Shown one piece after another: positions 17,965 to 51,139 of a stretch of DNA of 64,000 nucleotides. This stretch comes from Myxococcaceae bacterium (lineage in GTDB: Bacteria; Myxococcota; Myxococcia; Myxococcales; Myxococcaceae): NCBI GenBank assembly GCA_016793095.1, contig JAEUJQ010000037.1, positions 76,244 through 140,243 on the forward strand. Reading direction: 5' to 3'. Under the pieces are notes generated by a model. The model was not told where the DNA came from and searched no databases. It saw nothing but the letters and a program-made list of their open reading frames with translations. The position numbers and the translations under genes are program-made. Positions within the stretch are counted from its first letter, which is position 1. Each line of letters begins with the position of its first letter.

Positions 17965-20900
17965 ATGAAGACACGATACACGCTGATGCCCGGGCTCATC
18001 GCCCTCTGCGCCTGCAGCACCCTGCCGCCGTCCTCGGAACCGAAAGGCGCCGATGCGACGCTCACCTTGAACGTCCCTCAACGCGTCATCGCCTCGGCCG
18101 ACGCGCCTGCCCGCTTCACGGTGCTGGTGTCCGGCAGCGCGGAGCCCGTCCGGCTCACCATCGAAGGCGCGCCGGCTGGCGTGACGACCCAGCTCGACCA
18201 GCCAGAGACGACGACGTCGTCGGTGGTGACGGTGAAGGTCGAAGCCGGCACCTCGCCGATGACGGCGGAGCTGACGGTGCGCGCGACGGTCGGCACCGTG
18301 GAGGCGAAGAAGAGCGTGCGTCTCGACGTCGTGGGCGCGCCGAAGCTGCCCACCCGCGCCCCCGAGATCAGCGTCACGCTCGACCAGCTCTTCTACGCCG
18401 CGGGCCAGCGCGTGGAAGCCGTCGTGGACTTCGGCGCCCTCACCCCGCCCTCGACGGTGACCCTCTTCCTGTCTTCGACGGACTCGCGGGACGCGGAGCG
18501 ACTCGTGCTCGAGCGCGGGCCGGGCAACACCTTCCGGACGGCGGCGGGTGTGCCGACGTCCGCGCTCACGACGGGTGAGGGCGCGCCAAACGACGGCACG
18601 CTGCAGCTCCACCCGGGCGACAGCTTCTACGCGCTGTACTTCGTCGACCCCTCGCTCCCGAACCTCGAGGTCGGGCTCGTGTCCGACCTCGCGTTCCTCG
18701 ACGGCCCAGCGCGCGCCGAGACCCCGACCCACCTCGACAGCCGGCTCGCCCTGACGCCCGACGAGGCCTCGGCGATGAGGCCCATCGCGACGCTGCTGCG
18801 CAAGAACGAGCTGCCGCTGCAGCTCGCCGCTCGGGAGCTCATCGCCACCCCGTCCAGTCAGCGAGAGCTCGACCGCATCGTCGCCCTCACCGGTGGGCGC
18901 GTGGTGGATCAGCAGCCGGTGGGCCTCGACGGCACCGCCCTGGCCTACCTGCTCGAGGTGCCGACGGAGCGGGTGACCGCCGAGCGGCTCAGCATCATGC
19001 GGCACTTCGTCGGCGAGCTCGGCGAGCTCGCGTCCAGTCGCCCTGAAGGCCTCGGCGTGTACGCCCTGGCTCTGGCCGCGCGCCTCGAGGGGCTGCCAGT
19101 CACCGTCAACCCCAGGCTCGGCAGCCACGCGGCGCCCACCACCATCGAGGGTGAGCCGCCCAGCGACAACATGAGGGCGCTGGGCCGCGCCGGAGACACG
19201 GGCCCCTGCCTGCCAGGCGCCGACGCCGGCAACCCCTGCGTGCGGAACGCGCCGGCTCTGTGGACGTGGCTGTCGCTCATGGACCGGGACACCGAGCGGG
19301 TGCGCGTCGGCGTGCTCGACTACGGCTTCGCGCCGAACGCGGACTTCCGCCCGGACGCGGACGGTGGCTTTCGTGAGTGTGACATGACGGGCGGCGCAGC
19401 ACGGTGTGCCCCGGGGGCAGCGCGGGCGGCGCCGAACGCGGGCGCCTTCGGCGGCGACCGGGTGTGGCACGGCACCGGCTCGGTGACGGCGCTCGGCGGG
19501 GTGGTGAACGACGGCTTCGGCGGCGCTGGCACGGGTGGCCAGGTCGCGGTGCCGATGATGTACCGGTACGACAACCTCAACTTCGTCTTCAACATCGGCC
19601 GGGGCGTGCGACAGGCAGTGAACGACGGCGCGTCGGTCATCAACATCAGCGCCGGCTACCCGTGCAGCGTCGCGGTGAACGTCGGCCCCGACCTCGACCT
19701 CTGCACCGTCGCGGGCCGCGCTGCCATCTGCGCGGTGGTGAGCTTCGGAGTGCTGGGCGCCGCAGCCCTCGTCTGCCAGATCGACCCGCTCCTCTCGTGC
19801 GCGGTCGCCAACGGCATCGCGGCGACGGCAGTGACGGCGTGCGTGGGTACGCTCCAGACGAGCTTCGCGCTGGGAGACCCGCGCGACCCGATGCGCTCGG
19901 GCATCGTCTACGCGAAGAGCCGCGGCGTGCCGGTGGTGGTGTCGGCGGGCAACGCCTACCCGAGCAGCGTGCTGCCCGACGTGATTCGCGACTACGTCAA
20001 CCTGAACGACCGCAACACCAGCCGCTGGGGCGTGGTGCCCGCCTCGTTCCCTGAGGTCATCACGGTGGGCGCCGTCAACACCGCCCTCGACAACCAGGAG
20101 TTCCTCGGGCCCCGCGTCGACGTCTGGGCGCCCATCTTCACGCGCTACGCCCGGCCCTCGACTGACGACCCGGCGTCGGCGACGGTGTTCGACACCTTCA
20201 GCGGCACCTCGGACGCGGCGCCCTACACCACCGGCGTCGTGGCCGCGATGCAGGCCGCGAACCCGCGCCTCAACCCTGCCACCACGACGCTCACGGCCGA
20301 GGAGCGGCGCACCCTCACCGAGCGGGTGAAGGCGCTGTTGCGGGACACCGCGTGGACGAACAGCCAGCTCGTCTCGTACGGCTATCAGCACCAGCCGACC
20401 GAGCGCCCCCGGCTGCTCAACCCCCTCGGCGCGGTGAAGGCGGCCGCTCGAGGCGCGCTGCCCGACCTGCTGGCCCTGGGGTACGACGACCAGCTCAACT
20501 TCGAGGAGCACACCACCGTCGATGACCTGCCGTCCCAGGCGCGCGTCATCTCGGTCGGCTCGTGGGTGACCGGGTCCATCGTGGGCATCCCTGCCGTGCG
20601 CCTCGCCTCACCGCCGACCGATGTCGACTCTTTCCGGGTGCGGGGCGTGACGTCCGGGCGGGAGATGGTCTCGCAGGAGCTGCGCCTGCGGGTGCTGGCG
20701 GGCGTCACCGAGCTGCCGGTGCTCGTCGTCGATCGCGCCCTCGTGCAGTTCGAGCGTGTGTCCACGACGCGGCTGGGCGACGCCGAGTGGGAGCTCGTGT
20801 ACCGCTTCTTCACCCGCGAGCCGGACCTGACGTTCGGCGTGACGGCGGCGCCAGGCGACGACTTCGCCTACCGGCTGCGGCTCGAACCACCGGTGCGCGC

Positions 20901-21510
20901 GACGCCGTCGGTCCGAATCACTGAGCCTGCGGTGGCGATGTCGCGGATCTGCGTCGGTCAGTCGTTCGCGCTCAACGGCCGCGTCTCGTACCCGCCCACC
21001 ACTTTCACCGAGACGATGGGGCGCTGGCTCATCGATGGCGTCGTGGTGCGGAACACCGCCGACCGCTTCACGCCCACCTTCACCACCGCCGGTCTGCGCC
21101 GGATCGTCCTCGAGAGCGGAGGGGCCATGGACTCCATCACCGTCGAGGCGGTCCCGTGCTCGGTGTTCGTACGCATGGCAACTCCGGGCGGGAACGTCGC
21201 GGACTATCCATCGGGCTCGAACTCGTATTTGAGCGTGCCCCTGGGAGGGGAGCTGCGGGACGTGTCGGGCAACCTCTTGCCGACGGCGGGCTACACGTTC
21301 GAGTGGGTGACGGATCGCGCCGACGCGCAGCCGGGTGGACCGACGTCAGGGACCCAGGTCGTCGCGACGGGCAGCAGCGCCACGGGCCTCTTCTACGCGG
21401 TGCCGGGCGAAGCGGCGACCGAGCACCGGCTCGTCCTCATCGTCCGGCAGGGCGGCGTCGAGGTCGGTCGCTCGATCACGCGCCTCATCACCGTGCTGCA
21501 GCTCATCTGA
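17965..21510 (+). CDS. Subtilisin-like (S8) serine protease lipoprotein, 1181 aa
   Basis: Lipoprotein signal MKTRYTLMPGLIALCAC. S8 catalytic motifs HGTGS and GTSDAAPYTTG. GGAG RBS. Confidence 0.9.
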   Translation: MKTRYTLMPGLIALCACSTLPPSSEPKGADATLTLNVPQRVIASADAPARFTVLVSGSAEPVRLTIEGAPAGVTTQLDQPETTTSSVVTVKVEAGTSPMTAELTVRATVGTVEAKKSVRLDVVGAPKLPTRAPEISVTLDQLFYAAGQRVEAVVDFGALTPPSTVTLFLSSTDSRDAERLVLERGPGNTFRTAAGVPTSALTTGEGAPNDGTLQLHPGDSFYALYFVDPSLPNLEVGLVSDLAFLDGPARAETPTHLDSRLALTPDEASAMRPIATLLRKNELPLQLAARELIATPSSQRELDRIVALTGGRVVDQQPVGLDGTALAYLLEVPTERVTAERLSIMRHFVGELGELASSRPEGLGVYALALAARLEGLPVTVNPRLGSHAAPTTIEGEPPSDNMRALGRAGDTGPCLPGADAGNPCVRNAPALWTWLSLMDRDTERVRVGVLDYGFAPNADFRPDADGGFRECDMTGGAARCAPGAARAAPNAGAFGGDRVWHGTGSVTALGGVVNDGFGGAGTGGQVAVPMMYRYDNLNFVFNIGRGVRQAVNDGASVINISAGYPCSVAVNVGPDLDLCTVAGRAAICAVVSFGVLGAAALVCQIDPLLSCAVANGIAATAVTACVGTLQTSFALGDPRDPMRSGIVYAKSRGVPVVVSAGNAYPSSVLPDVIRDYVNLNDRNTSRWGVVPASFPEVITVGAVNTALDNQEFLGPRVDVWAPIFTRYARPSTDDPASATVFDTFSGTSDAAPYTTGVVAAMQAANPRLNPATTTLTAEERRTLTERVKALLRDTAWTNSQLVSYGYQHQPTERPRLLNPLGAVKAAARGALPDLLALGYDDQLNFEEHTTVDDLPSQARVISVGSWVTGSIVGIPAVRLASPPTDVDSFRVRGVTSGREMVSQELRLRVLAGVTELPVLVVDRALVQFERVSTTRLGDAEWELVYRFFTREPDLTFGVTAAPGDDFAYRLRLEPPVRATPSVRITEPAVAMSRICVGQSFALNGRVSYPPTTFTETMGRWLIDGVVVRNTADRFTPTFTTAGLRRIVLESGGAMDSITVEAVPCSVFVRMATPGGNVADYPSGSNSYLSVPLGGELRDVSGNLLPTAGYTFEWVTDRADAQPGGPTSGTQVVATGSSATGLFYAVPGEAATEHRLVLIVRQGGVEVGRSITRLITVLQLI

Positions 21511-21582
21511 TGGCTCCGAGCGCGCTGGCGGCGACCTCGTCGTGCGTGGTGAGCCGACCACGCCCGTGAGAGAGTCGCCGCC

Positions 21583-24456
21583 GTGCGCGCCGACGTGTCG
21601 GTCCAGCTGGTGAACCCACCCGCGGCCCCGCCTCCCGGGTCGTCGCCGCGGGCGCTGGGCCAGGGTCGCCTCGTGACCGCGTCGGGCTGGGAGGTGCCGA
21701 CGCTGAAGGACCCGCGGCTTCCGTTCGGCCTGCTGCTCTTCTCGTACGCCGTCGCGGGCTTCACCTTCCTCGGCTTCAACCGGCAGTGGTGGCAGATGGC
21801 CATCATCATGGGCAGCGCGTCGCTGCTCGAGGTGGCGCTGAGCTGGCTGCTGCACCGGCGGAAGATCGTCCCCGTCTCGGCCTTCATCACGAGCTGCTCG
21901 CTCGCCATCCTCCTCAACTACTCGCACCACTCGTGGGTGCTGCTGTTCCCCGTCTTCCTCGCCATCGGCTCGAAGTACGTGCTCACCGTCGAGGGCCGGC
22001 ACGTCTTCAACCCCGCCATGTTCGGCGTGGCGGTCTCGCTGCTCGTCTCGCGCGAGTGGATCACCGCGGCGCCGGCCTACCAGTGGGCCGGTGGTGACGT
22101 GACCATCAGCGTCTTCATCGCCACCGCCGCGCTCATGCTCTTCCTCTTCCGCGTGGGGCGCGGGCCGCTGGTGGTGAGCTTCCTCGTGCTCTACGCCCTG
22201 CAGACGGCGCTGCGCGCGTACATCATGCGGCACCACCTGCCGTGGCAGACGCTCTTCTTCGGCACCCTCGAGTCGCCGCCCTTCTACCTCTTCACGTTCT
22301 ACATGATCACCGACCCGGCCACGTCGCCGGCCGGCACACGCGGCCAGGTGCTGGTCGCCCTCGCGCTCGTCGTCATCGACGGCGTGCTGCACTTCAAGGA
22401 GAGCGTCTACACGTTCTTCTACGCGGCGCTGACCGTGGGCGTGGTGCGCTTCCTGTGGGCGCACGGCGCGCTGCTGGTGAAGGGTGGCGCGGCCCGGCTC
22501 GCGCGGCTCTTCGACCGGGACTCCTTCCTGCGCGTGGGCGCCGTCGGGGGCCTCGGCGTCGGGCTGCTCACCGCGTGGACGACCGTGCTCGCGCCGCTCG
22601 ACGCGCCGGCCGACGTGGGCTTCCGCTTCGAGCGGGTGGACGTGAAGCAGGCGGGGCTGCACTCCGAGCTGGGCACGACGCTGACCGAGGTCGACCCGCG
22701 CCTGCGCCACGTCGCCAAGTGGGTGCTCTCGGTGGGCGACGCCATCGTGACCGGCGACGTGGACGGAGACGGCTTCACCGACGTGCTGCTGACGCACCCG
22801 CTCGCGACCGCGAAGGACCGCGTCGGGCTGTACCGGAACCGGGGGGACTTCACGTTCGAGCGGCTGCCCCTTCCGGCGCTCGAGCCCTTGATGAACGACC
22901 CGAAGACGCACGGGCTCGCGAGCGGCGGCGTCTTCATCGACGACGACGGGGACGGCGATCAGGACCTGCTCCTCACCGTGGCGTTCGGCAAGACGCGCCT
23001 CCTGCGCAACCGCCTGAAGGAGACCGGCGCGCTCTCGTTCGAGGACGTGTCGCTGGCAGCGGGCCTCGACGCGCACACCGTGTCACTCGCGGCGACCTTC
23101 TTCGACTTCGACCAGGACGGCGTGCTCGACCTGCTCGTCACCAACGCGCTCACCACGCACCTGCCGGACTACGAGGCGCCGACGCCCCTCAACGTCTTCG
23201 CCTTGCCGCCGCCGGCCTCCGAGGGCGACCGCCGCATGTTCCGCTTCATGCACAACGGGTGGCACGACGCCGACAACGGCGGGGTGAACCACCTCTACCG
23301 GGGCCGCGGGGACGGCTCCTACGAGCGCCTCGACGAGAAGACCTGGGGCCTGCCCGAGACCCACTGGACGCTGGCCGTCGGCACCCAGGACTTCAACCAC
23401 GACGGCTTCACCGACCTCTACCTCGCCAGCGACTTCGGCCCCGACGACGTCTACCTGAACGAGGGCGGCCGCCACTTCCGCCGCATCGCGGGGCCGCGCT
23501 TCGGCGACGTCGGCAAGGACACCTACAAGGGCATGAACGTCTCCATCGCCGACTTCGATCGCGACGGCTTCTCCGACGTCACCGTCTCGAACGTGCACCA
23601 CGCGCTGCAGTCCGAGGGCAGCCTGCTGTGGATGGTGCGGCCCTCGAAGAGCGACCCCTTCGTGCCGACCTTCACCGACGAGGCGACGCAGCGGGGCATG
23701 TTGAACGAGCGGCGCTTCGGCTGGGGCGCGGCGGCGGGCGACCTCGACCTCGACGGCTGGGACGACCTCGTGCAGGCGAACGGCATGGTGGACACGCGCC
23801 TCGACCCCGAGCTCCTGACGCCGAGCCGCGAAGGCTTCGAGTGGCCCTGGAACAAGGGGCGCACCGACTACTGGTACGTGAACCAGAAGCTCATGCAGTC
23901 GGGGCCAGACATTCACACGTACGCCGACCGCTGGGGCGACATCCGCGGGCGCCACATCTACGCGAACGAGGCGCGGCGCGCGTACCTGAACCTCGGCCCC
24001 GGCAAGCCCGGCCAGTTCGTCGACGCGGCGAAGGCCCTCGGCGTGGACGACCCGGACAACTCCCGCGGGGTCTTGCTCGCCGACTTCGATCGCGACGGAG
24101 ACCTGGACCTGCTCATCAGCAACCAGCACGGCCCGGCGTCGCTCTACCGCAGCACGCTGCGCTCGAAGCCTGCTCGGCCGCACTTCGTCGCGCTCGAGCT
24201 GCACGGAGCCAGCGGCAACGGGGCGGCGGTGGGCGCGGTGGTGACGGTGAGCGCGACCGTCGAGGGACGTCCACTGACTCAGCGGCGTGAGGTGCAGCTC
24301 ATGGCCGGCTTCGCGGCGCAGGCCGAGCGGCGCCTCCTCTTCGGGCTCGGTGACACGGGTGAGCGACAGGTCGAGGTCACCGTGCAGTGGCCACGCGGCG
24401 ACCGTCGTTCCCTGCGGCTCGACGTCGATGCGCTCCACGTGGTGCGCGAGGAGTAG
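21583..24456 (+). CDS. Polytopic membrane domain fused to FG-GAP/VCBS repeats and a C-terminal ASPIC/UnbV domain (CRTAC1-like)
   Basis: About eight N-terminal TM helices with an RnfD/NqrB-like FNPAMFG motif. Repeated DxDGDGxxD FG-GAP loops. C-terminal LMAGFAAQAERRLLFGLGD (UnbV/ASPIC). GTG start. Confidence 0.85.
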   Translation: MRADVSVQLVNPPAAPPPGSSPRALGQGRLVTASGWEVPTLKDPRLPFGLLLFSYAVAGFTFLGFNRQWWQMAIIMGSASLLEVALSWLLHRRKIVPVSAFITSCSLAILLNYSHHSWVLLFPVFLAIGSKYVLTVEGRHVFNPAMFGVAVSLLVSREWITAAPAYQWAGGDVTISVFIATAALMLFLFRVGRGPLVVSFLVLYALQTALRAYIMRHHLPWQTLFFGTLESPPFYLFTFYMITDPATSPAGTRGQVLVALALVVIDGVLHFKESVYTFFYAALTVGVVRFLWAHGALLVKGGAARLARLFDRDSFLRVGAVGGLGVGLLTAWTTVLAPLDAPADVGFRFERVDVKQAGLHSELGTTLTEVDPRLRHVAKWVLSVGDAIVTGDVDGDGFTDVLLTHPLATAKDRVGLYRNRGDFTFERLPLPALEPLMNDPKTHGLASGGVFIDDDGDGDQDLLLTVAFGKTRLLRNRLKETGALSFEDVSLAAGLDAHTVSLAATFFDFDQDGVLDLLVTNALTTHLPDYEAPTPLNVFALPPPASEGDRRMFRFMHNGWHDADNGGVNHLYRGRGDGSYERLDEKTWGLPETHWTLAVGTQDFNHDGFTDLYLASDFGPDDVYLNEGGRHFRRIAGPRFGDVGKDTYKGMNVSIADFDRDGFSDVTVSNVHHALQSEGSLLWMVRPSKSDPFVPTFTDEATQRGMLNERRFGWGAAAGDLDLDGWDDLVQANGMVDTRLDPELLTPSREGFEWPWNKGRTDYWYVNQKLMQSGPDIHTYADRWGDIRGRHIYANEARRAYLNLGPGKPGQFVDAAKALGVDDPDNSRGVLLADFDRDGDLDLLISNQHGPASLYRSTLRSKPARPHFVALELHGASGNGAAVGAVVTVSATVEGRPLTQRREVQLMAGFAAQAERRLLFGLGDTGERQVEVTVQWPRGDRRSLRLDVDALHVVREE

Positions 24457-24810
24457 AGGCCCTCACTGCGCCGTGCACGCGAACCATGCGTCGAGGCCGA
24501 CGTTGTACGGCCCGGGCGGGTTGAAGCTGCTGAGCACGGGCGACGGGCTGACGGAGTCGATCGCCTCGTTCGGTCCTCACACCGTCTTGTCGCAGACGAC
24601 GGTGTGGCGTCGTCGCGACCTTCCCTCTTCGGACAACCCGCTGGGACGGTGCGCCGCCGGCGCAGAAGTCCTCGGAGCCGCGCGAAGATTGCGCCTCGTC
24701 ACCGCTCAACCGTCCGCGCCCGCGCGGTGGCGACAGGCATCGCAGATGCAGCTTCCGCCCTGCCCTGCGCGCGTCGCGCAGCACGCTTCATCATGATCAA
24801 GAGGCACGCC

Positions 24811-25641
24811 ATGACTCTGCATCGCGCATTCCTCGCCCTGGCCCTCCTTGGTGCCGGCGCTGCATTCGCGGCCGACAAAGAGAAGGCCGGCTGCAAGGAC
24901 TACCCGGTCTTCCCCACCCGCATGCCGGACTACTTCCTCATCGACTGCCAGATGCGCGAGTTCGACAAGTTCGAGTTCCAGACAGGGAAGCGCGAGAAGA
25001 ACCGCGTCGAGGGCAAGTTCACGATGCTGAAGTACCAGATCGGCGAGAAGAAGACGCAGCAGAGCGGCCTCGCCATCACCCGCAACTACGAGAACGCGAT
25101 CAAGCAGCTGGGCGGCACCATCGCCGCCAGCGACCCGGACCGCTGGGTCAACGGCAGCGTGAAGGTGGACGGTAAGGAGATCTGGGTCGAGGTCTACAAG
25201 GGCAACGGCTTCTACACGCTCAACATCATCGAGAAGCAGGCCATGGAGCAGCACATCGTCGCCGACGCCGCGTCACTCACCGCCGACCTCGCGCGCACCG
25301 GCCACGTCACCGTGCACGGCATCTTCTTCGACACCGGAAAGACCGAGCTCAAGGCCGAGTCGAAGGCCGCGCTCGACGAGGTCGCGAAGCTGCTCAAGGC
25401 CGACGCCGCGCTGAAGCTGTGGGTCGTGGGGCACACGGACTCGGTGGGCTCCGTCGATGACAACATGAAGCTCGCCCAGGGCCGCGCCGAGGCAGTGGTG
25501 AGCTCCCTCGTCAGCGCGCACGGCATCGCGGCGGCGCGGCTCAAGGGGTACGGCGTGGGGCCGCTCGCGCCCATCTCGAGCAACGACGCCGAAGACGGCC
25601 GCGGGAGGAACCGGCGCGTCGAGCTCGTGAAGCAGCCCTGA
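24811..25641 (+). CDS. OmpA family protein
   Basis: Signal peptide MTLHRAFLALALLGAGAAFA, AAGAGG RBS. OmpA C-terminal domain (GHTDSVGSVDDNMKLAQGRAEAV, NRRVELV). Confidence 0.85.
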   Translation: MTLHRAFLALALLGAGAAFAADKEKAGCKDYPVFPTRMPDYFLIDCQMREFDKFEFQTGKREKNRVEGKFTMLKYQIGEKKTQQSGLAITRNYENAIKQLGGTIAASDPDRWVNGSVKVDGKEIWVEVYKGNGFYTLNIIEKQAMEQHIVADAASLTADLARTGHVTVHGIFFDTGKTELKAESKAALDEVAKLLKADAALKLWVVGHTDSVGSVDDNMKLAQGRAEAVVSSLVSAHGIAAARLKGYGVGPLAPISSNDAEDGRGRNRRVELVKQP

Positions 25642-25681: not shown

Positions 25682-27643
25682 GTGATCCTCTGCTGCCAGC
25701 AGTGCCAGACCAGGTTCGACCTCGCAGACGCGCTCGCCACGCCCGGCACTGCGGTGCAGTGCAGCCGGTGCGGACAGCTCTGGACCCTGGCCGCGACCGT
25801 CATCTTCAACTGCCGTCATTGCCGGCTGAGCCAGCCCTTCCAGCGCAGCGCCCCTGGAGCCGATGACTGGGCGTGCACGCGCTGCGGCACCCTGCTGCAA
25901 CCAGGCGGCGCGGTGCGTCGTCCGCCAGCCGAGCCGCCAGCACGGGCGCCGGTGAACACGGGGCGGGTCATGATCTTTGGCGCACCGGCGGGCCAGGTCA
26001 ACGCGCCGGCCCCCAATCCCCGGTCGCAGATGATGGTGTTCGGTGAGCCGCGCGCGAACGCGATGATGTTCGGCTCGCCAGCCCACACCGGACCGCCGCC
26101 GCCCGAGCCCGTCATCGCGCCGTGCGAGACGTGCGGTGAGCTTCGCCTCGAGCGAGGCCCCGCGCCGCTGGGCCTCGTCTTTCACGGCTGCGGTCGCTGC
26201 GCCCACACCGTCCTCGACAAGGTGCACGTGGCGGCCCAGCGGGCGCAGGTTCGTTCGAAGGGTTACCGGCCAGGCAGCCGCTGCCCCATCTGCGAGACGC
26301 GCGCCCTCGTCGAAGAGCCGCAGACGGGCGAGCGCCCACGGCAGTACCGCTGCACTGCCTGCGACGCGGCGTTCCCGTTCGGCGCCCTGCCGGTGCCCGA
26401 CCAGCCCGGGCCACGCACGCGCCCTGCGCGCTGGGCGAACTGCAGCGACTGCAGCTCCACCGTCTGGCGCCTCGGCCAGGCCCCGCGCTCGGTCCCCTCG
26501 TCCACCTGCGACCGCTGCGGCCGTCGGAAGTTCGACGACGTCGCCCTCGGCCACCGCCGCGCGTGGGCCCGCCAGATGACGGCGCCCCAGCGCCTCGTGT
26601 TCGGACTCGGGCCGTCGCCGTACGACTTCTGCATCGTGTGTGGCCACCAGCGCGTCATCGAGGGCCGGTGCGCAGCCTGTGGGGAGGTCTACGACGGCAA
26701 GCCGCTCGGGCCGTCTCCCGACGAGCGCTCCGAGGCGACGCTGCTCGAGCGCATCGCCGCCGCTCCCGACGACGACGCGCCCCGGCGCGTGCTCGCGGAC
26801 GTGCTGCTCGACCGTGGGGACGAGCGCGGTGAGTTCATCACCCTGCAGCTCGACGCCGAGGCGGGCCCGTTGACGGCAGCGGCGCAACAGCGGCTGGACA
26901 ACCTGCTGGTGCAGATGCGGCACCGTGCCGCCCCGCCTGGCGTCGAGCACACCGGTGTCACCTTCCGCCGTGGGTTTCCCGACGCGGTCGTGTGGCCCGG
27001 GTGGACGGACCCGCAGCACCCGGGCTGGCGGACCGTCACCGAGCTGCTCGTCCCCGCGTTCGCGCCCGACGCAGGCCGCCGCGACCTCACCCCGCTCGGC
27101 GGCCCTCCGCTCACGAGCCTGCGCCAGCTGCGAGGCGCCGGGCGCACCATCGCGGGGTTTCTCGTCGAGAACCCGCCGCCCAACCTCACGACGCTCGGGC
27201 TGTGGCTGGAGCCGCCCGTCGGCGACGGGGACCTCTCGCTGCTTCAGCGCCTGCTCGACGCGCTGCCACGGCTCAACGACCTCTCCGTCCACGAGCGAGG
27301 GCCCCAGCGCTTCGGCGCCCGCCGGTGGGGGCCCACGGTGGCCCGCCTCGTCGCGGCCCGGCTCTTCCGCCTGCGCCTGCACCTCGACGAGCTGACTCCG
27401 GGGCAGGCCCGCGAGCTCGTCGCCCGGGACGCGCCACACCTCACCCTGCAGCTCGAGCCGGAGCCGTCGATTCGCGCGCGCGCGTGGGTCGAGGTCGATG
27501 ACGAGGGGACCCGGCTCGTGCTGCGCGAGCAGGTCGAGGCGCCGCTCCTCGAGCGGGTGGCCCTCGCGCTGCGCGCCTCGGGGCTCACCGGCGTCGATGC
27601 GCTCGACCTCGCCTCAGGACAGCGGTCGCGCTGGGAGCTGTAG
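25682..27643 (+). CDS. Multi-zinc-ribbon protein with TIGR02996 repeat-companion domain
   Basis: Six CxxC...CxxC zinc-ribbon modules (the first is MJ0042-like), then LLERIAAAPDDDAPRRVLADVLLDRGDERGEFITLQ. GTG start. Confidence 0.8.
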   Translation: MILCCQQCQTRFDLADALATPGTAVQCSRCGQLWTLAATVIFNCRHCRLSQPFQRSAPGADDWACTRCGTLLQPGGAVRRPPAEPPARAPVNTGRVMIFGAPAGQVNAPAPNPRSQMMVFGEPRANAMMFGSPAHTGPPPPEPVIAPCETCGELRLERGPAPLGLVFHGCGRCAHTVLDKVHVAAQRAQVRSKGYRPGSRCPICETRALVEEPQTGERPRQYRCTACDAAFPFGALPVPDQPGPRTRPARWANCSDCSSTVWRLGQAPRSVPSSTCDRCGRRKFDDVALGHRRAWARQMTAPQRLVFGLGPSPYDFCIVCGHQRVIEGRCAACGEVYDGKPLGPSPDERSEATLLERIAAAPDDDAPRRVLADVLLDRGDERGEFITLQLDAEAGPLTAAAQQRLDNLLVQMRHRAAPPGVEHTGVTFRRGFPDAVVWPGWTDPQHPGWRTVTELLVPAFAPDAGRRDLTPLGGPPLTSLRQLRGAGRTIAGFLVENPPPNLTTLGLWLEPPVGDGDLSLLQRLLDALPRLNDLSVHERGPQRFGARRWGPTVARLVAARLFRLRLHLDELTPGQARELVARDAPHLTLQLEPEPSIRARAWVEVDDEGTRLVLREQVEAPLLERVALALRASGLTGVDALDLASGQRSRWEL

Positions 27644-32949: not shown

Positions 32950-34617
32950 ATGACCCGACTGATGCTCGACTACCTCTACGACCACGAGTCCACCCGCGCC
33001 CAGCAGGTGTACCTGACCCAACCCCTCGGCGGCGGACAGGCGAGGGACTACACGTGGGCCCAGGTGATGAGCGAGGCGCGCAAGATGGCCGCGCACCTGC
33101 GCACGCTGGGCCTCTCGCCCGGCGACAAGGTGGCCATGCTGTCGAAGAACTGCGCCCACTTCTTCATCGCTGAGATCGCCATCTGGATGGCGGGCTACAC
33201 GACGGTCGCCATCTTCCCCACCGAGGGCCCGGACACCATCCGCTTCGTGCTCGAGCACTCGGACTCGAAGGTCCTCTTCGTCGGCAAGCTCGACAACTGG
33301 GCCTCGCAGGCGCCAGGCGTTCCCGCGCACCTCAAGCGCATCGCCTTCCCGCTCGGCCCGAAGAGCGACGACGCCGGCGACAAGTGGGACGACCTCGTGG
33401 CGAAGACCGCGCCGCTCGACGGCAAGCCAGCGCGTGACCCGAAGGACCTCGCGATGATCATCTACACCTCGGGCTCCACCGGGCAGCCCAAGGGCGTGAT
33501 GCACAGCTTCGAGCGCGCGACCGAGGCGACCCGACGCATCGTCGAGCGCATCAAGCTGGGCGACGGCGACCGGGCGCTCTCGTACCTGCCCCTCGCGCAC
33601 ATCTTCGAGCGCGCGTACATCGAGTGCGCGTCGATGCTGACCGGCGGCGCCCACATCTTCTTCGCCGAGTCGCTCGAGACCTTCGTCGCCGACCTCAAGC
33701 GCGCGCACCCGACGCTCTTCCTCTCGGTGCCCCGTCTCTGGCTCAAGTTCCAGCAGGGCGTCTTCACCAAGCTGCCCCCACAGCGCCTCGACCTCTTGCT
33801 CAAGCTGCCCATCATCAAGGGCCTCATCTCGAAGAAGGTCCTCACGGGCCTGGGCCTCGACGCCGTGCGCCTCGCTGGCAGCGGGTCGGCGCCCATTCCT
33901 GCCGAGCTCATCGCCTGGTACCGCCGCCTCGGCCTCAACCTGCTCGAGGGGTACGCGATGACCGAAGACTTCGCGGTCTCGCACCTGTCCACCGAGACGT
34001 TGAACGCGCCGGGCTACGTGGGCGTGCCGTACCCGGGCGTCGACGTGAAGATCACCGAAGAGGGAGAGGTGCTCATCAAGTCGCCGGGCACGATGGTGGG
34101 CTACTACAAGCGGCCCGATCTCGACGCCGAGGCCTTCTCCGCTGACGGCTTCTTCCGCACCGGTGACAAGGGCGAGCGACGCCCTGACGGCCTGCTCAAG
34201 CTGACCGGCCGCGTGAAGGAGCTCTTCAAGACGGCCAAGGGCAAGTACGTGTCGCCGGCGCCCATCGAGAACAAGCTGAACGAGCACGCGCTCATCGAGC
34301 TGTCGTGCGTGTCGGGGGTTGGCCAGCCGTCGGCCTTCGCGATGGTGGTGCTGGCCGAGGACATCCGCAAGACGCAGACGAGCCCCGAGACGCGCGCGCG
34401 GGTCGAGAAGGAGCTGGGCGAGTGGCTCAAGCAGGTGAACGCGGGGCTGTCGGCCTACGAGCAGCTGCAGATGCTCATCGTGATGCCGGGGCCATGGACC
34501 ATCGAAGAGGGCACGCTCACGCCGACGATGAAGCTCAAGCGCGCGAAGATCGAGGCGCTCATCGGGCCGAAGCAGGAAGGCTGGTTCGCCAACTCCGCGC
34601 CCGTGCAGTGGGCGTGA
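32950..34617 (+). CDS. AMP-dependent synthetase/ligase (long-chain acyl-CoA synthetase-like)
   Basis: YTSGSTGQPKGV, GYAMTE and LTPTMKLKR motifs. GGAGGGG RBS. Confidence 0.9.
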   Translation: MTRLMLDYLYDHESTRAQQVYLTQPLGGGQARDYTWAQVMSEARKMAAHLRTLGLSPGDKVAMLSKNCAHFFIAEIAIWMAGYTTVAIFPTEGPDTIRFVLEHSDSKVLFVGKLDNWASQAPGVPAHLKRIAFPLGPKSDDAGDKWDDLVAKTAPLDGKPARDPKDLAMIIYTSGSTGQPKGVMHSFERATEATRRIVERIKLGDGDRALSYLPLAHIFERAYIECASMLTGGAHIFFAESLETFVADLKRAHPTLFLSVPRLWLKFQQGVFTKLPPQRLDLLLKLPIIKGLISKKVLTGLGLDAVRLAGSGSAPIPAELIAWYRRLGLNLLEGYAMTEDFAVSHLSTETLNAPGYVGVPYPGVDVKITEEGEVLIKSPGTMVGYYKRPDLDAEAFSADGFFRTGDKGERRPDGLLKLTGRVKELFKTAKGKYVSPAPIENKLNEHALIELSCVSGVGQPSAFAMVVLAEDIRKTQTSPETRARVEKELGEWLKQVNAGLSAYEQLQMLIVMPGPWTIEEGTLTPTMKLKRAKIEALIGPKQEGWFANSAPVQWA

Positions 34618-34633
34618 GCTGACAGGAGCCCCC

Positions 34634-37600
34634 ATGCCGCTGCGCTCGCGGGTCGCCGCGCTGCTCTTCTTCTCGGGCGCGTGCGCCCTCGTCTACCAGG
34701 TGGCATGGCTCCGCGAGCTCCGGCTCATCTTCGGGGCCTCGACCGCGGCGTCGGCGGCGGTGCTCGCCATCTTCATGGGCGGGCTCGGCCTCGGCGGCGC
34801 GCTGCTGGGCCGGCGGGTGGACGCGAACCCGCAACCCCTGCGGCTGTACGCGAAGCTCGAGCTCGCGGTGGCCGGCGTGACGCTGGTGACGCCGGTGCTG
34901 GTGGGGCTCGCGCGCGCCGTCTACATCGCGGTGGGCGGCGCGGCGACGCTGGGCGACGTGGGCGCGACGCTGGCGCGGCTCGTGCTCGCGGTGCTGGTGC
35001 TGGGGGCGCCGACGTTCCTGATGGGGGGCACGCTGCCGGCTGCCGCGCGCGCCATCGAGACCGCTGGCGACAAGGGGCGCAGCGGCGTGGCGACGCTCTA
35101 CGGCGTCAACACCTTCGGCGCGGTGACGGGCGCGGTGCTGGCCAACTTCGTGCTCATCGAGGCGCTGGGGACCCGCCAGACGCTCTTCTTCGCGTGCGTC
35201 GTCAACGCCGTGGTGGCTGGCGTCGCCTGGCGCCTGTCGCAGGGCCTGGGCGCGGCCTCGAAGAGCGGGGCTCAGCCCGAGCAGGAAGACGACGTGGCCC
35301 CCTCGGCGCCGCCGCGCTTCGTCCTCGTCTCTGCGGGTGTCGTGGGCTTCGCCTTCTTCCTGATGGAGCTCGTCTGGTACCGCATGCTCGGGCCGCTCCT
35401 GGGCGGCAGCTCGTACACCTTCGGCCTCATCCTCGCGGTGGCGCTCGTCGGCATCGCGGTGGGTGGCGTGCTCTTCGCGGCAATGGGGCGGCAGCGCGCG
35501 CCCACCCTCACCTCGTTCGCCCTCACCTGCGCGGTCGAAGCGGCGCTCGTCATCATCCCCTTCGCGCTCGGGGACGAGGTGGCGCTGCTGGCGCTCTTCC
35601 TTCGCCCGCTGCGGGGCTTCGGCTTCCTGGGGCTCGTCGCGGCCTGGAGCGTGGTGGCGGCGCTGGTGGTGCTGCCGGCCGCCATCGTGTCGGGCTACCA
35701 GTTCCCGATGCTCATCGCGCTGCTGGGCAGCGGGAAGAAGAACGTCGGGCGCCACATCGGCAACGCGTACGCCGCGAACACCGTGGGCGCCATCGCCGGC
35801 TCACTGGCGGGGGGCTTCGGGTTGCTGCCGTTGCTCGGCGCCACGGGCTCGTGGCGGCTCGTGGCGGCGGTGCTGGCCGCGCTGGGCGCGAGCGCGGTGG
35901 GGCTGGCCCTTCGCGCGAAGACGCCCGTGCGTGCGTTCCTGGCCCCGGTGGCGTTCACCGCGGTGTCCGTCGCGCTGCTCTTCGCGACCGGTCCCACGGC
36001 GGCCTGGCGCCACAGCCCCATCGGGGTGGGCCGCGCCGACGACATCATCGCCCGGCCGTCCGAGGTCGCCGTCGAGAACTGGCTGCGCGCGTCGCGCGAC
36101 GGGATTCTGTGGGAGGCCGACGGGAGGGAGAGCTCGGTGGCCCTCAACGGCCGCCTCGGCATGGCCTTCATCGTGAACGGGAAGAACGACGGCAACGCGC
36201 GGAGCGACGCGGCGACGCAGGTCTTCTCGGGGTTGATGGGCGCGGCGCTCCACGCGGCGCCGAAGCGCGCGATGGTGGTCGGCCTCGGCACCGGCAGCAC
36301 CGCCGGGTGGCTCGGCGTCATCCCCGGCATGGAGTCAGTGGACGTGGTGGAGCTCGAGCCCGCCATCCTCCGCGTCGGCGATGACTGCACGCCGGTCAAC
36401 GCGGGGGTGATGAAGAACCCGAAGGTGCACCTGTCCATCGGCGACGCGCGCGAGGTGTTGCTCACCACGCGCGAGCAGTACGACATCGTCTTCTCGGAGC
36501 CGTCGAACCCGTATCGCGCCGGCATCTCGAGCCTCTACACGCGCGACTTCTACGAGGCGGTGAAGACGCGCCTGTCGTCGAAGGGCGTCTTCCTGCAGTG
36601 GCTGCAGGCCTACGAGGTTGACGCGACCGCGCTGCGCATCGCGATGACGACGCTCTCGAGCGTCTTCGCCCACGTCTCCGTGTGGACGACCCAGCAGGGC
36701 GACCTCATGCTCATCGCCACCGCCGAGCCGCTGACCATCGACGCACCCACCCTGCGCGCACGGCTCGAGACCGAGCCCTGGCGCAGCGCGATGGCGCACG
36801 TGTGGCGCGCGACCGGGCTCGAGACCTTCCTCGCGCACCACCTGGCCACGCCGCAGTTCACGAAAGGCATCGCGGACGAAGAGGGCCCGGGCCGCGTCAA
36901 CTCCGACGACCGCAACCTGCTCGAGTTCGCCTTCGCCGGCGCGGTGGGGCGGGGCGCGGGCTTCCCGGTCACCGACGTGTGGAACGCAGCGATGGCGAAG
37001 AAGGCCGACCGGCCCGCCGTCACCGGAGACGTCGATTGGGTGAAGGTGGCGGAGCGCCGCGCGCAGATCAGCCGGGTGCCGTTGCCGCGCGGCGTGTCGC
37101 TGAGCCCGCCCCGCGCCGCGATGCTGCGCGCCGTGTGGCGGCACGCGGCCGACGACCTGCAAGGCACGCTCGCTGCGCTCAAGAGCGACGAGGCCATCGG
37201 CTCCGAGACGCTGCTCGAGGCCGAGGCCGCGGCCGAGGCGTTCGCCGAGGTGGGCGACGCACGGGCGCTCACGCACCTCGAGCTGGTGCGCGCGCAGGAG
37301 CCGGTCGAGGCCGATGCGCTCGAGGCGCGCTACCTGCTGCGCAGCGGGAAGGCTGACGAGGCGTCGCAGAAGCTGGCCGCGGCGCTCGTCGCCTACCGGA
37401 GCGATCCGTGGCCACGCGCGCGGGTGATGTACCGGGCCATTCTGCTCGCCGGTGAGCTGGCCAACCTCGGTCCCCCGCACGCCGAGCGGCTCTTCGCGGC
37501 GCTCGAGAAGCCCTTCTCGGTGACGATGCACGACGGCGCGCGGCGCATGGCGCTGCTCGAGGTGGCGATGCGCCTCGACGGGACGAAGTGCGCGACCGCC

Positions 37601-37783
37601 GTCGCCCAGCTCGAGCCCCACTTCCCCTTCGAGCGCGGGCCGCTGGAGAAGCGCGTGGCGTGTCTCAAGCGCGGAGGAGCGGCCGCCGAGCTCGCCCGGG
37701 CCACCGCCGACCTGCAGCGCTTCGTCGCGGCCAGCCCCCCGCCCTTCGCGAGGTCGGGTGGAGGGACCGGCGACGGCGACTGA
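34634..37783 (+). CDS. Fused polytopic membrane (MFS-like) / spermidine-synthase-like aminopropyltransferase family protein (1049 aa)
   Basis: About 12 N-terminal TM helices. Spermidine-synthase-like GLGTGSTAGW and DIVFSEPSNP motifs. Long helical C-terminal tail. AGGAG RBS, 16 bp after the ligase gene. Confidence 0.85.
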   Translation: MPLRSRVAALLFFSGACALVYQVAWLRELRLIFGASTAASAAVLAIFMGGLGLGGALLGRRVDANPQPLRLYAKLELAVAGVTLVTPVLVGLARAVYIAVGGAATLGDVGATLARLVLAVLVLGAPTFLMGGTLPAAARAIETAGDKGRSGVATLYGVNTFGAVTGAVLANFVLIEALGTRQTLFFACVVNAVVAGVAWRLSQGLGAASKSGAQPEQEDDVAPSAPPRFVLVSAGVVGFAFFLMELVWYRMLGPLLGGSSYTFGLILAVALVGIAVGGVLFAAMGRQRAPTLTSFALTCAVEAALVIIPFALGDEVALLALFLRPLRGFGFLGLVAAWSVVAALVVLPAAIVSGYQFPMLIALLGSGKKNVGRHIGNAYAANTVGAIAGSLAGGFGLLPLLGATGSWRLVAAVLAALGASAVGLALRAKTPVRAFLAPVAFTAVSVALLFATGPTAAWRHSPIGVGRADDIIARPSEVAVENWLRASRDGILWEADGRESSVALNGRLGMAFIVNGKNDGNARSDAATQVFSGLMGAALHAAPKRAMVVGLGTGSTAGWLGVIPGMESVDVVELEPAILRVGDDCTPVNAGVMKNPKVHLSIGDAREVLLTTREQYDIVFSEPSNPYRAGISSLYTRDFYEAVKTRLSSKGVFLQWLQAYEVDATALRIAMTTLSSVFAHVSVWTTQQGDLMLIATAEPLTIDAPTLRARLETEPWRSAMAHVWRATGLETFLAHHLATPQFTKGIADEEGPGRVNSDDRNLLEFAFAGAVGRGAGFPVTDVWNAAMAKKADRPAVTGDVDWVKVAERRAQISRVPLPRGVSLSPPRAAMLRAVWRHAADDLQGTLAALKSDEAIGSETLLEAEAAAEAFAEVGDARALTHLELVRAQEPVEADALEARYLLRSGKADEASQKLAAALVAYRSDPWPRARVMYRAILLAGELANLGPPHAERLFAALEKPFSVTMHDGARRMALLEVAMRLDGTKCATAVAQLEPHFPFERGPLEKRVACLKRGGAAAELARATADLQRFVAASPPPFARSGGGTGDGD

Positions 37784-49108: not shown

Positions 49109-49836
49109 CTACCGCGGGTCGCGCGAGAGGCCGCACGCGGTGGCGACGTCGTCGCGGTAGACGAGCCAGGCGGACAGCACCTGCTCCATCGAGGCGATGA
49201 CGGCGGCGTGGTCCGCCTCGGGCACGTGGTCGAGCATCACCCTCCAGGCTGCCATGCGGTGCTCGCCCTCGACGCCGCGTGAGCCTTCGTCAGCGCGAGC
49301 GACGCGACCGGCAGCCCATAGTGCTTCACGAGCGGGTGCTGCTCGAGCGGCGGCTCCGGGCGGGGCGGCGCCGAGGGGTCGAAGAGCGCGCGCTCGTGCG
49401 GCGTGCCCTCGAGGAAGAGCGTCACCACCGCCGCGGCGACGCTCCAACCGCGCGTCTGCGTCGCCTCGTCGAGCAGCCCCCGGTACAGCCTCGCGCCCGG
49501 CAGCAGCGTGACGTGCTCGAAGCGCGACACGTCGAACCCGAGGCCCTTCGGGTACTCGAGGAACAGCTCGGGGTGTGGCCGGCCCGCGTGCAGCCCGCCC
49601 GTCTCCTCCTCGTACATGTTCTCAGCCAGCTCGCGGCGCACCGCGGGGATGGGGCACTGCACGTACGCGCGCGCGACCAGCACCGGGAAGTCACGCACGT
49701 AGACCGCGTACTCCTGCTCGAGGTGTACGTGCAGCCGCGCCTTCGCCACCGTGCCGTTCGTGAACGAGCTCCACGCCCAATGCTGCTTCTTCTCCATCAC
49801 CTGGAGCAGCGCCTCGCGGAACCCGTCGCGCGTCAT
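49109..49836 (-). pseudogene. PqqC-like / TenA (haem-oxygenase-like) family gene with apparent +1/-1 frameshift near 49280
   Basis: N-terminal 200 aa in frame A (stop at 49237). C-terminal about 60 aa (EHRMAAWRVMLDHV...) continues in another frame to 49109. Joined, they reproduce the PqqC H-x5-6-H spacing and a typical length of about 240 aa. Confidence 0.6.
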
Positions 49837-49927
49837 GAGGGGATTGTCGGCGCTCCAGCTCGTCGCCTCAAGCCGTGCGCCGCGCGCAGGCGGAACCGGT
49901 CGCGAGTCGTGCAGACGCTGAACGGCG

Positions 49928-50075: not shown

Positions 50076-50158
50076 CCCGCAACGCGGTGGACCTGCGCAA
50101 GGTGGACAAGTGGGTCGCGACCGCGGCGAAGCACCCCTCGTCGCCCCAGCCGGTCGCC

Positions 50159-51139
50159 TCAGGCCGTGGGCCGCGGCCCGCTGGACGAGACCAGCCGCAG
50201 CAACTCGACGTACCCGCTGGCGAGCGTCGCGTCTGCGAGCACACCCCGTTCGCCCAGCAGCCGGTGCAGCGCCTCGAGCCGGTGATGCGGCACGGTCATC
50301 AGCAGGTGATGCTCGAGGTGGAAGTTCACGTGGTGCGGCGCGACGGTGAGCCGCGCGAGCAGGTTCGCCTTCGTCGTGCGCGTGTTGCGGAGCGGGTCGG
50401 CTGAGCGCTCGGTGCAGGCGTGCTCGGCGAGCGAACGGAGGCGCAGGAAGAGGCTGAACGTCGTCAGGTACGCCCCGAGCCAGAGCAGCGAGAGCCAGGG
50501 CGCGCCGATGAGCACCGTCACCCCGACGAGCGCGCCGTTCGCCAGCAGCACCGGCCCCAGCCGACGGACACCGAAGGCCAGGACCTCGCCGAGCGGCCGC
50601 CCGCGCCCGGTCCACCGCGCGCCGACCGACGCCGTGTACGTCAGGTACCCGAGGTCCATCAGCGCGAGGCCGACGACGCGCTTGAGGCCGGTGACGCCGA
50701 AGAGGTCTCGCGCCAGCTTGCGCACGAGCGACGCCTTCGAGACCGGGAACGGTGTGACGAGCCCGAGGTCCGGGTCTTCGTCGAGCCCGGTGAAGGAGTG
50801 GTGTCGAAGGTGGTGCTCCCGATACTCGTCGAGGTGCAGCCACACGGGCGCGGCGCACAGCCACGCTCCGACGCCGTCGTTGAGCCAGCGTGTCTTGAAG
50901 AGCGACCTGTGGGACGCCTCATGCATCAGAATGGCGAGCGCCAGCTGCCGGCCGCCGAGCACGACGAGCGCCACGGCGACCGTCAGCGCGTTGGGCCAGC
51001 GCCAGACGAGCGCGAAGGCGAAGGTGATGAGGCTCCACGTCACCACGACGCTCCACGCGCCGCGCACGTCGCTCGCCTCGGTGAGGTGGGCGATCTCCTC
51101 GCGGGTGAGGACCTCGGTCACGCGACGCATCGCCCTCAC
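50159..51139 (-). CDS. Fatty acid desaturase family membrane protein
   Basis: Three His boxes HEASH, HHLRHH and HLEHH plus TM helices. GTG 51139 overlaps the upstream stop (GTGA); an alternative ATG is at 51130. Confidence 0.85.
   Translation of the reverse strand: MRAMRRVTEVLTREEIAHLTEASDVRGAWSVVVTWSLITFAFALVWRWPNALTVAVALVVLGGRQLALAILMHEASHRSLFKTRWLNDGVGAWLCAAPVWLHLDEYREHHLRHHSFTGLDEDPDLGLVTPFPVSKASLVRKLARDLFGVTGLKRVVGLALMDLGYLTYTASVGARWTGRGRPLGEVLAFGVRRLGPVLLANGALVGVTVLIGAPWLSLLWLGAYLTTFSLFLRLRSLAEHACTERSADPLRNTRTTKANLLARLTVAPHHVNFHLEHHLLMTVPHHRLEALHRLLGERGVLADATLASGYVELLRLVSSSGPRPTA

Follow-up and report, generated by a model that had tools for sequence, protein, structure and literature searches.

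The 64,000 nucleotides of Myxococcaceae genomic DNA analyzed here (the window; contig JAEUJQ010000037.1, positions 76,244 to 140,243) include a gene whose product joins a polytopic membrane domain related to RnfD/NqrB to a CRTAC1-like FG-GAP/ASPIC propeller. A sequence-only reading of the window had placed such a fusion at 21583-24456, and the open reading frame (ORF) lies exactly there on the + strand, with a GTG start, a length of 957 amino acids (aa) and the stop codon included in these limits. We identify both halves of the protein, the membrane half as E5/UnbU and the propeller half as E4/UnbV. The fusion is thus a form, independent of any polyketide synthase (PKS), of a protein pair from enediyne biosynthesis that is still unexplained.

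Reading frame and domain content of the fusion gene

GC content is about 71% throughout the window, which consequently contains numerous long overlapping ORFs. Three of these, 451-682 aa long, cover the fusion gene in other frames (21346-23076 on the - strand, 23083-24438 on the - strand and 22242-24290 on the + strand). GC content at codon positions 1/2/3 of the fusion gene is 0.70/0.45/0.96, a coding-type pattern found in this frame alone and lacking in the overlapping ORFs, and these three are high-GC artifacts. The in-frame stop codon upstream of the fusion gene ends at 21552, start candidates up to residue 38 all lie upstream of the first transmembrane helix (which begins at about residue 45), and every ATG or GTG codon before residue 72 is likewise ahead of that helix. 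An internal start, which the sequence-only reading had named as its own weak point, therefore cannot delete the membrane domain; in addition, the window protein and its nearest homologs share an N-terminus that reads MRAD or VRAD. A scan of positions 21300-24800 for promoters and terminators found none, such a scan being uninformative for a myxobacterium with 71% GC.

Over the whole protein, Pfam recovered NQR2_RnfD_RnfE (PF03116) at residues 52-265 (E=1.7e-10; 41.2 bits against a gathering score of 27.7, and 45.5 bits when residues 1-345 were searched alone), FG-GAP_3 (PF13517; six stretches, 2.8e-33), FG-GAP (PF01839; 6.3e-22) and UnbV_ASPIC (PF07593; E=1.7e-11) at residues 882-944. AlphaFold2 modeled the full-length protein with a predicted local distance difference test score (pLDDT) of 82.7 and a predicted template-modeling score (pTM) of 0.82, and residues 1-345 with a pLDDT of 86.9 and a pTM of 0.84. 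Pfam and fold evidence thus bear out the proposed combination of an RnfD/NqrB-like N-terminus with a CRTAC1-like FG-GAP/ASPIC half. The first 22 residues have a pLDDT below 50, and conservation starts at W36/D43/R45.

Hydropathy and the two AlphaFold2 models place 11 membrane helices between residues 45 and 339, where roughly eight had been estimated from the sequence. Fold comparison assigns the domain to the RnfD/NqrB three-dimensional fold; its next-best fold relatives are Amt/Rh ammonium channels and urea transporters, at 5-10% identity. A single-sequence phmmer search of residues 1-345 against PDB sequences gave no match, and a profile was required for the alignment to RnfD. The FNPAMFG motif noticed earlier is present at residues 142-148 and aligns with the FNPA motif of RnfD. 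Seven residues are invariant both in the fusion family and in standalone UnbU-like proteins: K131, H140, N143 and P144 (the last three within HVFNPAMFG), and M241, D244 and P245 (within YMITDPATSP). In the fusion family alone, R211, R216, H218, D266 and H270 of the membrane domain are also invariant, as is the APAYQ segment (A163-Q167) of the loop SREWITAAPAYQWAGGD. With so many invariant polar residues, K131, H140, N143 and D244 among them, a purely passive anchoring role of the membrane domain is unlikely. The earlier idea of a membrane-tethered propeller thus holds as a description of the architecture and probably says too little about the membrane domain.

The loop that carries flavin mononucleotide (FMN) in RnfD and NqrB is periplasmic, and NqrB binds a noncovalent flavin too. 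In the hidden Markov model (HMM) alignment, the RnfD loop with the flavinylated Thr ('..TTATPL..') appears as about 35 inserted residues relative to the fusion family, in which SREWITAAPAYQWAGGD stands in its place. The motif [ST]G[AS][ST], which follows the definition of the flavinylation motif by Méheust et al. (bioRxiv 10.1101/2021.01.07.425746), occurred in the first 360 aa of none of the 69 family members. The NCBIfam model for rnfD (TIGR01946) scored 24.3-28.2 bits against a cut-off of 207, the model for nqrB (TIGR01937) gave no match, and no NCBIfam UnbU or UnbV model matched the fusion protein. Among 30 window ORFs scanned with Pfam, none encodes ApbE, FMN_bind, an Rnf/Nqr subunit or an NAD-binding partner, and none of these appears in the precomputed Pfam calls of annotated related loci.

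As judged from the alignments, the membrane domain has no FMN site. It is a member of the RnfD/NqrB fold superfamily, yet it is not RnfD. A genuine Rnf/Nqr subunit is ruled out by the absent FMN loop, the low rnfD score and the lack of Rnf/Nqr neighbors, so the resemblance pointed out in the sequence-only reading extends to the fold and stops short of the covalent-FMN site.

In the C-terminal half, the Asp and Gly positions of seven DxDxDGxxD loops are invariant in the fusion alignment, and these loops are predicted to mark seven FG-GAP blades of the calcium type. In Foldseek, the full model matched murine CRTAC1 best among PDB entries (crystal structure 9etn_A; E=1.8e-20; target TM-score 0.69), with integrin alpha headpieces next. 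Within the NVHH motif, H672 is invariant and H673 is conserved in at least 90% of sequences, while pLDDT falls below 50 at residues 672-677.

Features of the fusion gene and its product, with residue numbers of the protein and nucleotide positions in the window
Feature	Residues	Window positions	Strand	Basis
UnbU(E5)-like/UnbV(E4)-like fusion gene		21583..24456	+	ORF, codon GC, four Pfam families, homologs
Poorly conserved tail, predicted cytoplasmic, ends in GW.xP...DPRxPF	1-44	21583..21714	+	pLDDT, alignment
RnfD/NqrB-fold core, 10 helices, UnbU/E5-like, predicted N-in/C-in	45-301	21715..22485	+	
HVFNPAMFG motif	140-148	22000..22026	+	Alignments; aligns to RnfD FNPA motif
Short periplasmic loop SREWITAAPAYQWAGGD	156-172	22048..22098	+	HMM alignment to RnfD chains
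YMITDPATSP motif	240-249	22300..22329	+	Alignments; motif common to RnfD
Extra 11th transmembrane helix, takes chain outside	312-339	22516..22599	+	Alignments, charge pattern
GFRFERV ('FRF') motif just beyond the membrane	346-352	22618..22638	+	
Seven-blade FG-GAP/VCBS beta-propeller, CRTAC1/UnbV-like, predicted periplasmic	~378-860	22714..24162	+	
Seven DxDxDGxxD calcium-type loops	392, 453, 508, 603, 657, 720, 834 (starts)	22756..24108	+	Regular expression
FMHNGWH motif, invariant in fusion family	555-561	23245..23265	+	
NVHH motif, fusion-specific, conserved low-confidence loop	670-673	23590..23601	+	
YVNQKLMQ motif in conserved low-pLDDT insertion (residues 745-793)	765-772	23875..23898	+	
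UnbV_ASPIC C-terminal beta domain	882-944	24226..24414	+	PF07593; FGLG common to cassette UnbV

Kinship with the E5/E4 pair of enediyne clusters

Besides fragments of fusion proteins, searches with residues 1-345 recovered a large number of standalone proteins, 270-340 aa long and 27-37% identical (E=1e-13 to 1e-30), which are named 'enediyne biosynthesis protein E5' or 'UnbU' in JGI/KEGG and NCBI; the best E value against UnbU-like proteins located in cassettes was 4.7e-30. An exhaustive search of 1.84 billion representatives returned 1315 matches at E<=1e-3, 376 at E<=1e-10 and 53 at E<=1e-30. In all four genomic contexts of standalone UnbU that were checked, the same cluster contains a gene for a 600-665 aa FG-GAP plus UnbV_ASPIC protein and, nearby, a KS-AT-KR-DH PKS of 1.9-2.2 kaa, the latter adjacent to UnbU in two. 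UnbU comes directly after UnbV in three of the four, with genes that sometimes overlap, and two contain a 4HBT gene.

The individual clusters vary in arrangement. At locus L006, an UnbV-like gene (656 aa, FG-GAP_3 plus UnbV_ASPIC) is followed by the UnbU-like gene, and an iterative KS-AT-KR-DH PKS lies about 4 kb off on the opposite strand, while the order at L007/L008 is UnbV (637 aa), UnbU (299 aa) and PKS (2224 aa). In Bradyrhizobium japonicum (L089), the order is DUF1702, UnbV (665 aa), UnbU (332 aa), PKS (1865 aa) and a 4HBT thioesterase, which we take to be a complete five-gene cassette with DUF1702 as E3 and 4HBT as E10. L090 has a PKS, 4HBT, UnbV (601 aa), a 340-aa gene and UnbU (285 aa). 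The E3, E4 and E5 genes of the enediyne PKS cassette have been recognized as conserved since 2002-2003, and SgcE5/SgcE4 of C-1027 is an example of the E5/E4 pair. Clusters of this type are known in the literature as the enediyne PKS cassette E10/E/E5/E4/E3 (PMC4480864, PMC5181780), and as of 2023 E3, E4 and E5 were conserved genes without known function (PMC9992847).

The propeller half of the fusion protein is related to the second member of the pair. It aligns nearly end to end with the UnbV of L007 (29% identity over 656 columns; E=2.6e-31) and is 28% identical to that of L006, the two alignments spanning about 500-650 aa. In a multiple alignment with four cassette UnbVs, the motifs M-x(5)-A-x-NGGxN, DFGPD, D[ST][YF]KGM and FGLG are common to both groups, with NGGxN following FMHNGWH in the fusion family; two of the four (L006 and L007) have a clear FRF motif, F347 is nearly invariant in the fusions, and NVHH is absent from the cassette proteins. 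Standalone UnbU-like proteins stop near query residue 300, and helix 11 aligns with the hydrophobic N-terminal segment of all four cassette UnbVs (MAFFT), so that the fusion can be read as UnbU, a former UnbV anchor and UnbV in succession. The premise of the sequence-only reading that ASPIC/UnbV proteins are normally soluble or secreted is accordingly incomplete, since it misses both the hydrophobic anchor of cassette UnbV and its pairing with the membrane protein UnbU/E5.

Because the fusion has E5 before E4, whereas the cassette genes run E4 then E5, simple read-through was not its origin. With a threshold of E<=1e-5 and no coverage filter, tblastn found no match to PKSE (the enediyne PKS), DUF1702 (E3) or 4HBT (E10) in the window or at any of 85 fusion loci; the two cassette PKSEs, which served as a positive control, detected each other. 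The identification of the gene as a fused E5–E4 (UnbU-UnbV) pair that is independent of a PKS is well supported by these sequence comparisons. Two divergent fusions, P0331 and P0348, were checked as a bridge to the PKSE cassettes and provided none. The literature searched contained no paper linking RnfD/NqrB to FG-GAP/VCBS, no CRTAC1 structure paper and no match for the names UnbU and UnbV together with enediyne. Neither the fusion nor its operon is described there, in a search that did not reach key enediyne papers.

Distribution and genomic context of the family

The sequence-only reading had called the fusion unusual, a description that does not survive a wider view of the databases. A search with the full protein listed at least 120 full-length homologs of about 900-970 aa, at 52-92% identity and with the same set of four Pfam domains, and a scan of one genome per species, which used FMHNGWH as a search pattern, found full-length orthologs in at least 130 species-representative genomes. 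Most carriers are Myxococcota (Myxococcus xanthus, Corallococcus, Pyxidicoccus, Archangium, Cystobacter, Hyalangium, Vitiosangium, Sandaracinus and metagenome-assembled genomes [MAGs] of Bradymonadales), and the ortholog of Haliangium ochraceum is P0102. Beyond this phylum, carriers include MAGs labeled Sericytochromatia, Planctomycetota, Eisenbacteria and Gemmatimonadaceae. The nearest genomes in the species scan are uncultured Myxococcaceae/Archangiaceae MAGs at 84-85% identity. Mean column identity across the fusion family is 59%, and identity between phyla is 52-58%. Orthologs are annotated variously as 'FG-GAP-like repeat-containing protein', 'CRTAC1 family protein', 'enediyne biosynthesis protein E4' and 'RnfD subunit'.

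These numbers also bear on the possibility of an annotation or assembly artifact, in which a frameshift or misassembly merged the adjacent genes of a membrane protein and a secreted propeller, or an internal start was overlooked and the true protein has no membrane part. Such a suspicion is natural where high-GC DNA yields many long spurious ORFs and the two parts are separate genes in PKSE cassettes. It conflicts with the continuous frame and uniform third-position GC of 0.96, with the recurrence of the same single ORF in all those homologs and genomes, which come from independent assemblies that include complete genomes, with the reversal of the cassette order, and with start codons that all precede helix 1. 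Frame, homologs and start positions effectively refute an internal start or gene merging, and we give an artifact next to no credence. The fusion is a real, conserved and uncharacterized family, neither a chance ORF nor a product of assembly.

Other architectures combine the same flavin-less membrane domain with different partners: a BNR_2 propeller precedes the RnfD-like domain in P0349, the RnfD-like domain is joined to DUF2330 in P0325 and P0353, and P0265 consists of an RnfD-like domain, FG-GAP repeats and a C-terminal AurF-type di-iron oxygenase domain. Together, these proteins suggest a general theme of a membrane module coupled to a periplasmic domain.

A conserved gene cluster surrounds the fusion gene at loci where the protein is at most 63% identical to that of the window. 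Upstream and divergently oriented is a gene for a small protein with five transmembrane helices (unk203), often with a fatty-acid desaturase gene; downstream are genes for unk275 (soluble, about 257 aa), a GH3-family ligase and a Rieske/VanA_C oxygenase. Among 80 loci, the Rieske partner was counted at 55, unk275 and unk203 at 47 each and GH3 at 46, and unk405 (about 370-405 aa) is often near the cluster. Examples are L002:3021-12497, L004:10001-18428, L005:2819-12811, most of L034-L088, and L050:7000-15500 in Myxococcus sp. Y35, where stop and start codons overlap among the fusion, unk275, GH3 and Rieske genes. Near the last of these clusters are also an 864-aa TIGR02270-family/HEAT protein fused to a ketoacyl-synthase-like domain (L050:3855-6449, - strand) and a DUF2169 protein (L050:7034-8071, - strand). 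The divergent fusion P0331 sits elsewhere, among two-component signaling genes.

Gene fusions reinforce the linkage of these partners with the E5–E4 fusion. The unk203 protein is joined to the C-terminus of the fusion at L067:8997-12485, L069:8808-12413, L071:9093-12515 and L073:8365-11790 and to its N-terminus in P0261, and unk275 is joined to the N-terminus, the predicted cytoplasmic end, in P0252. None of unk275, unk203 and unk405 has a Pfam, NCBIfam or PDB-profile match; the label 'GNAT-like' goes back, for unk405, to a faint Pfam call precomputed for a single homolog and, for unk275, to sequence reading alone. The Rieske protein has a weak similarity to a sterol monooxygenase, and the GH3 protein to OlsH (40 bits against an equivalog cut-off of 620), a GH3-type lyso-ornithine-lipid synthetase. 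OlsH shows that N-acyl amino acids are made by GH3 enzymes of bacteria (PMC12493201); a word search for RnfD and FG-GAP in that paper gave nothing.

By pairwise identity, the window protein, from an uncultured Myxococcaceae/Archangiaceae-like genome, belongs to a separate group with 17 of the 69 sequences (67-92% identical). At L009-L033, L035 and L001 and throughout the 64-kb window, family HMMs for unk275, unk203, unk405 and GH3 found no match, and seven clade members at about 70% identity retain only a Rieske ortholog, 1-8 kb downstream. The window clade has lost the operon linkage. All family-invariant residues are nevertheless kept in this clade, so its protein is probably functional, with partners that are located elsewhere in the genome or lost.

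On the same strand as the fusion gene and ending 72 nt upstream of it is a gene for a 1181-aa protein (17965..21510, +) with a central S8 subtilase domain (residues 446-800) between long unannotated flanks; no counterpart of this gene adjoins the fusion at any related locus. On the downstream side are an OmpA-like gene (24604-25641) and a gene for a 653-aa protein (25682-27643, +) with an N-terminal zinc ribbon and the stretch LLERIAAAPDDDAPRRVLADVLLDRGDERGEFI, which may resemble TIGR02996, a repeat-companion domain that many Myxococcota and Planctomycetota proteins carry. Compared with locus L001, these two genes are inserted between the fusion gene and a Ser/Thr kinase gene, and the downstream kinase region is the sole neighborhood that the window shares with the nearest relatives.

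Farther away, at 32950-37783 (+), a gene for an AMP-binding adenylate-forming enzyme is directly succeeded by one for a 1049-aa protein of unusual, large architecture with a central spermine/spermidine-synthase-like domain. A three-gene run at 49237-51720 (-) encodes a Haem_oxygenas_2 iron-containing redox enzyme, a fatty-acid desaturase and a DUF1697 protein. This desaturase (50159..51139), 26 kb from the fusion, has a weak 26.6% identity to the desaturase of the Haliangium cluster.

An orphan gene beside an S8 subtilase, an OmpA-like protein and a Ser/Thr kinase could encode a membrane-anchored adhesin or receptor, with the propeller binding matrix, polysaccharide or another cell and the membrane domain acting mainly as an anchor or signal transducer, much as in the tethering idea of the sequence-only reading. 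The seven calcium-type FG-GAP loops, the structural proximity to CRTAC1 and integrin alpha headpieces and the setting of P0331 among two-component signaling genes are consistent with such a role. Conservation, at the levels given above for the family and between phyla, is however very high for a surface receptor. Furthermore, invariant residues of the membrane domain include polar and charged ones, most orthologs are in a tight operon with cytoplasmic enzymes to which some are fused, and the homologous E5/E4 pair is obligatory in a biosynthetic cassette (PMC4480864). We therefore regard an adhesin or receptor as quite improbable.

Topology, proposed function and comparison with known systems

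The loop that corresponds to the periplasmic FMN loop of RnfD (residues 156-172) is followed by helices at residues 173-191, 194-214, 221-242 (broken), 252-271, 277-301 and 312-339, and these six crossings would leave the propeller outside. Positive charges fall in the predicted cytoplasmic loops (RRK at 92-94, R190/R193 and five K/R at 300-317), and this positive-inside pattern agrees with the periplasmic position of the RnfD loop and likewise places the propeller outside. From this pattern we infer an N-in membrane domain with a periplasmic propeller.

The main rival to the function proposed below is a transmembrane redox conduit, in which noncovalent riboflavin or a quinone would pass electrons to or from an oxidoreductase site in the propeller, the whole being a minimal Rnf/Nqr-like module driving oxidative chemistry outside the cytoplasm. 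In enediyne cassettes, E3-E5 are said to carry out oxidative steps on the polyene jointly. The fold is unambiguously that of RnfD/NqrB, and single-gene fusions of NqrB/RnfD-like with NqrF-like proteins are on record (bioRxiv 10.1101/2021.01.07.425746). The idea is kept alive by the redox partners, namely the Rieske oxygenase and fatty-acid desaturase in the operons of relatives and the C-terminal AurF-type di-iron domain of P0265, and by the invariant His-rich motifs FMHNGWH and NVHH of the propeller, which are putative metal ligands. It is weakened by the absence of the covalent-FMN loop and motif from all 69 members and by the lack of ApbE, FMN_bind, Rnf/Nqr or NAD-binding partners in the window and annotated related loci, as well as by rnfD and nqrB scores far under their cut-offs and by next-best structural relatives that are channels (Amt/Rh and urea transporters). 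On balance, a redox conduit seems unlikely.

The explanation toward which we lean, with modest confidence, is that the gene encodes a fused E5–E4 pair with a path for lipid in the membrane and a propeller on the outer face, rather than a flavin-based Rnf/Nqr subunit. The membrane domain would provide a path or binding site within the membrane for a hydrophobic, lipid-like molecule, a proposal motivated by the channel-type fold and the invariant polar residues, and the propeller above it would bind or process that molecule, with helix 11 replacing UnbV's own N-terminal anchor. In the distant orthologs, the operon partners (GH3 ligase, GNAT-like proteins, desaturase and Rieske oxygenase) would probably supply the substrate, for which an N-acyl amino acid or some other modified acyl lipid is a candidate. 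The corresponding substrate of PKSE cassettes would be the polyene made by the PKS. Three conserved, low-confidence loops, APAYQW (residues 163-168), NVHH (670-673) and residues 745-793 with YVNxKLMQ, are candidates for a joint substrate site. We infer both this mechanism of conduit plus processing and the nature of the substrate.

Several points weigh against a lipid path. The function of the family is read from sequence and models, and the role of E4/E5 is itself unassigned (PMC9992847); a continuous pore, and contact between propeller and membrane domain, are hypothetical. The operon partners include redox enzymes and NqrB has a noncovalent flavin as well, so a redox role of the membrane domain is conceivable. 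Cassette UnbVs are without the His-rich motifs of the fusion family, and the cassette and fusion branches may differ in chemistry. In addition, the window clade has no operon partners within 9 kb of the gene, nor are there any in the 64-kb window, so the lipid-pathway context is borrowed from orthologs that are at most 63% identical.

A broader and more speculative proposal, which we think possible though doubtful, is that UnbU-UnbV is an old, general two-part membrane machine, made up of a flavin-less RnfD/Amt-fold conduit and a CRTAC1-like propeller that faces outward, for the processing or export of lipid-like molecules. Enediyne E5/E4 would be one specialized branch of it, and the fused form with its partners (GH3, GNAT-like, Rieske, desaturase and the protein with five transmembrane helices) would constitute an undescribed envelope-lipid (possibly aminolipid) pathway of Myxococcota and several other phyla. 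If so, the machine would be tractable in Myxococcus xanthus, giving a first experimental handle on E4/E5 in enediyne biosynthesis. A natural E5–E4 fusion argues that the pair forms one physical unit, seated in the membrane with the E4 propeller on the outer face, and the fused form occurs in culturable, tractable myxobacteria, free of toxic enediyne chemistry and in a compact operon. The value of the window gene itself is moderate, as it is one ortholog with no informative operon, and that of the family is higher as a route to E4/E5. The RnfD/NqrB fold, moreover, has a large branch that has shed its flavin (the 1315 representative clusters at E<=1e-3), members of which are repeatedly coupled to periplasmic FG-GAP, BNR or DUF2330 domains, and the annotation labels 'RnfD subunit' and 'CRTAC1 family protein' are misleading for the fusion genes.

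Among known systems, RnfD/NqrB shares PF03116 membership and the fold with the fusion protein but differs from it in cofactor, model score and operon. The ApbE-flavinylated Thr of RnfD/NqrB is in a periplasmic loop that the fusion protein is without, whereas the fusion protein has an extra transmembrane helix and a periplasmic propeller of 600 aa. The likeness of the membrane domain to Amt/Rh and urea transporters is one of fold, and no homology was detected at the sequence level. CRTAC1 has in common with the fusion protein an FG-GAP propeller and UnbV_ASPIC, at 17% identity. However, CRTAC1, a matrix protein, is secreted and has no polytopic membrane domain, its EGF-like domain was not found in the fusion protein by the Pfam scan, and the bacterial fusion, unlike CRTAC1, is tied to metabolic enzymes in most lineages. 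The planctomycete ornithine-lipid pathway of OlsH is connected with the family through the weak likeness of the GH3 partner, a gene that was not found in the window.

The closest relationship is to the E5/E4 pair of the enediyne cassettes, to which both halves of the fusion are homologous (27-37% identity for E5 and about 29% for E4). The fusion family is set apart from the cassette proteins by invariant motifs of its own (APAYQW, FMHNGWH, NVHH and YVNxKLMQ) and by operon partners (GH3, Rieske, GNAT-like and desaturase) that differ from those of the cassette.

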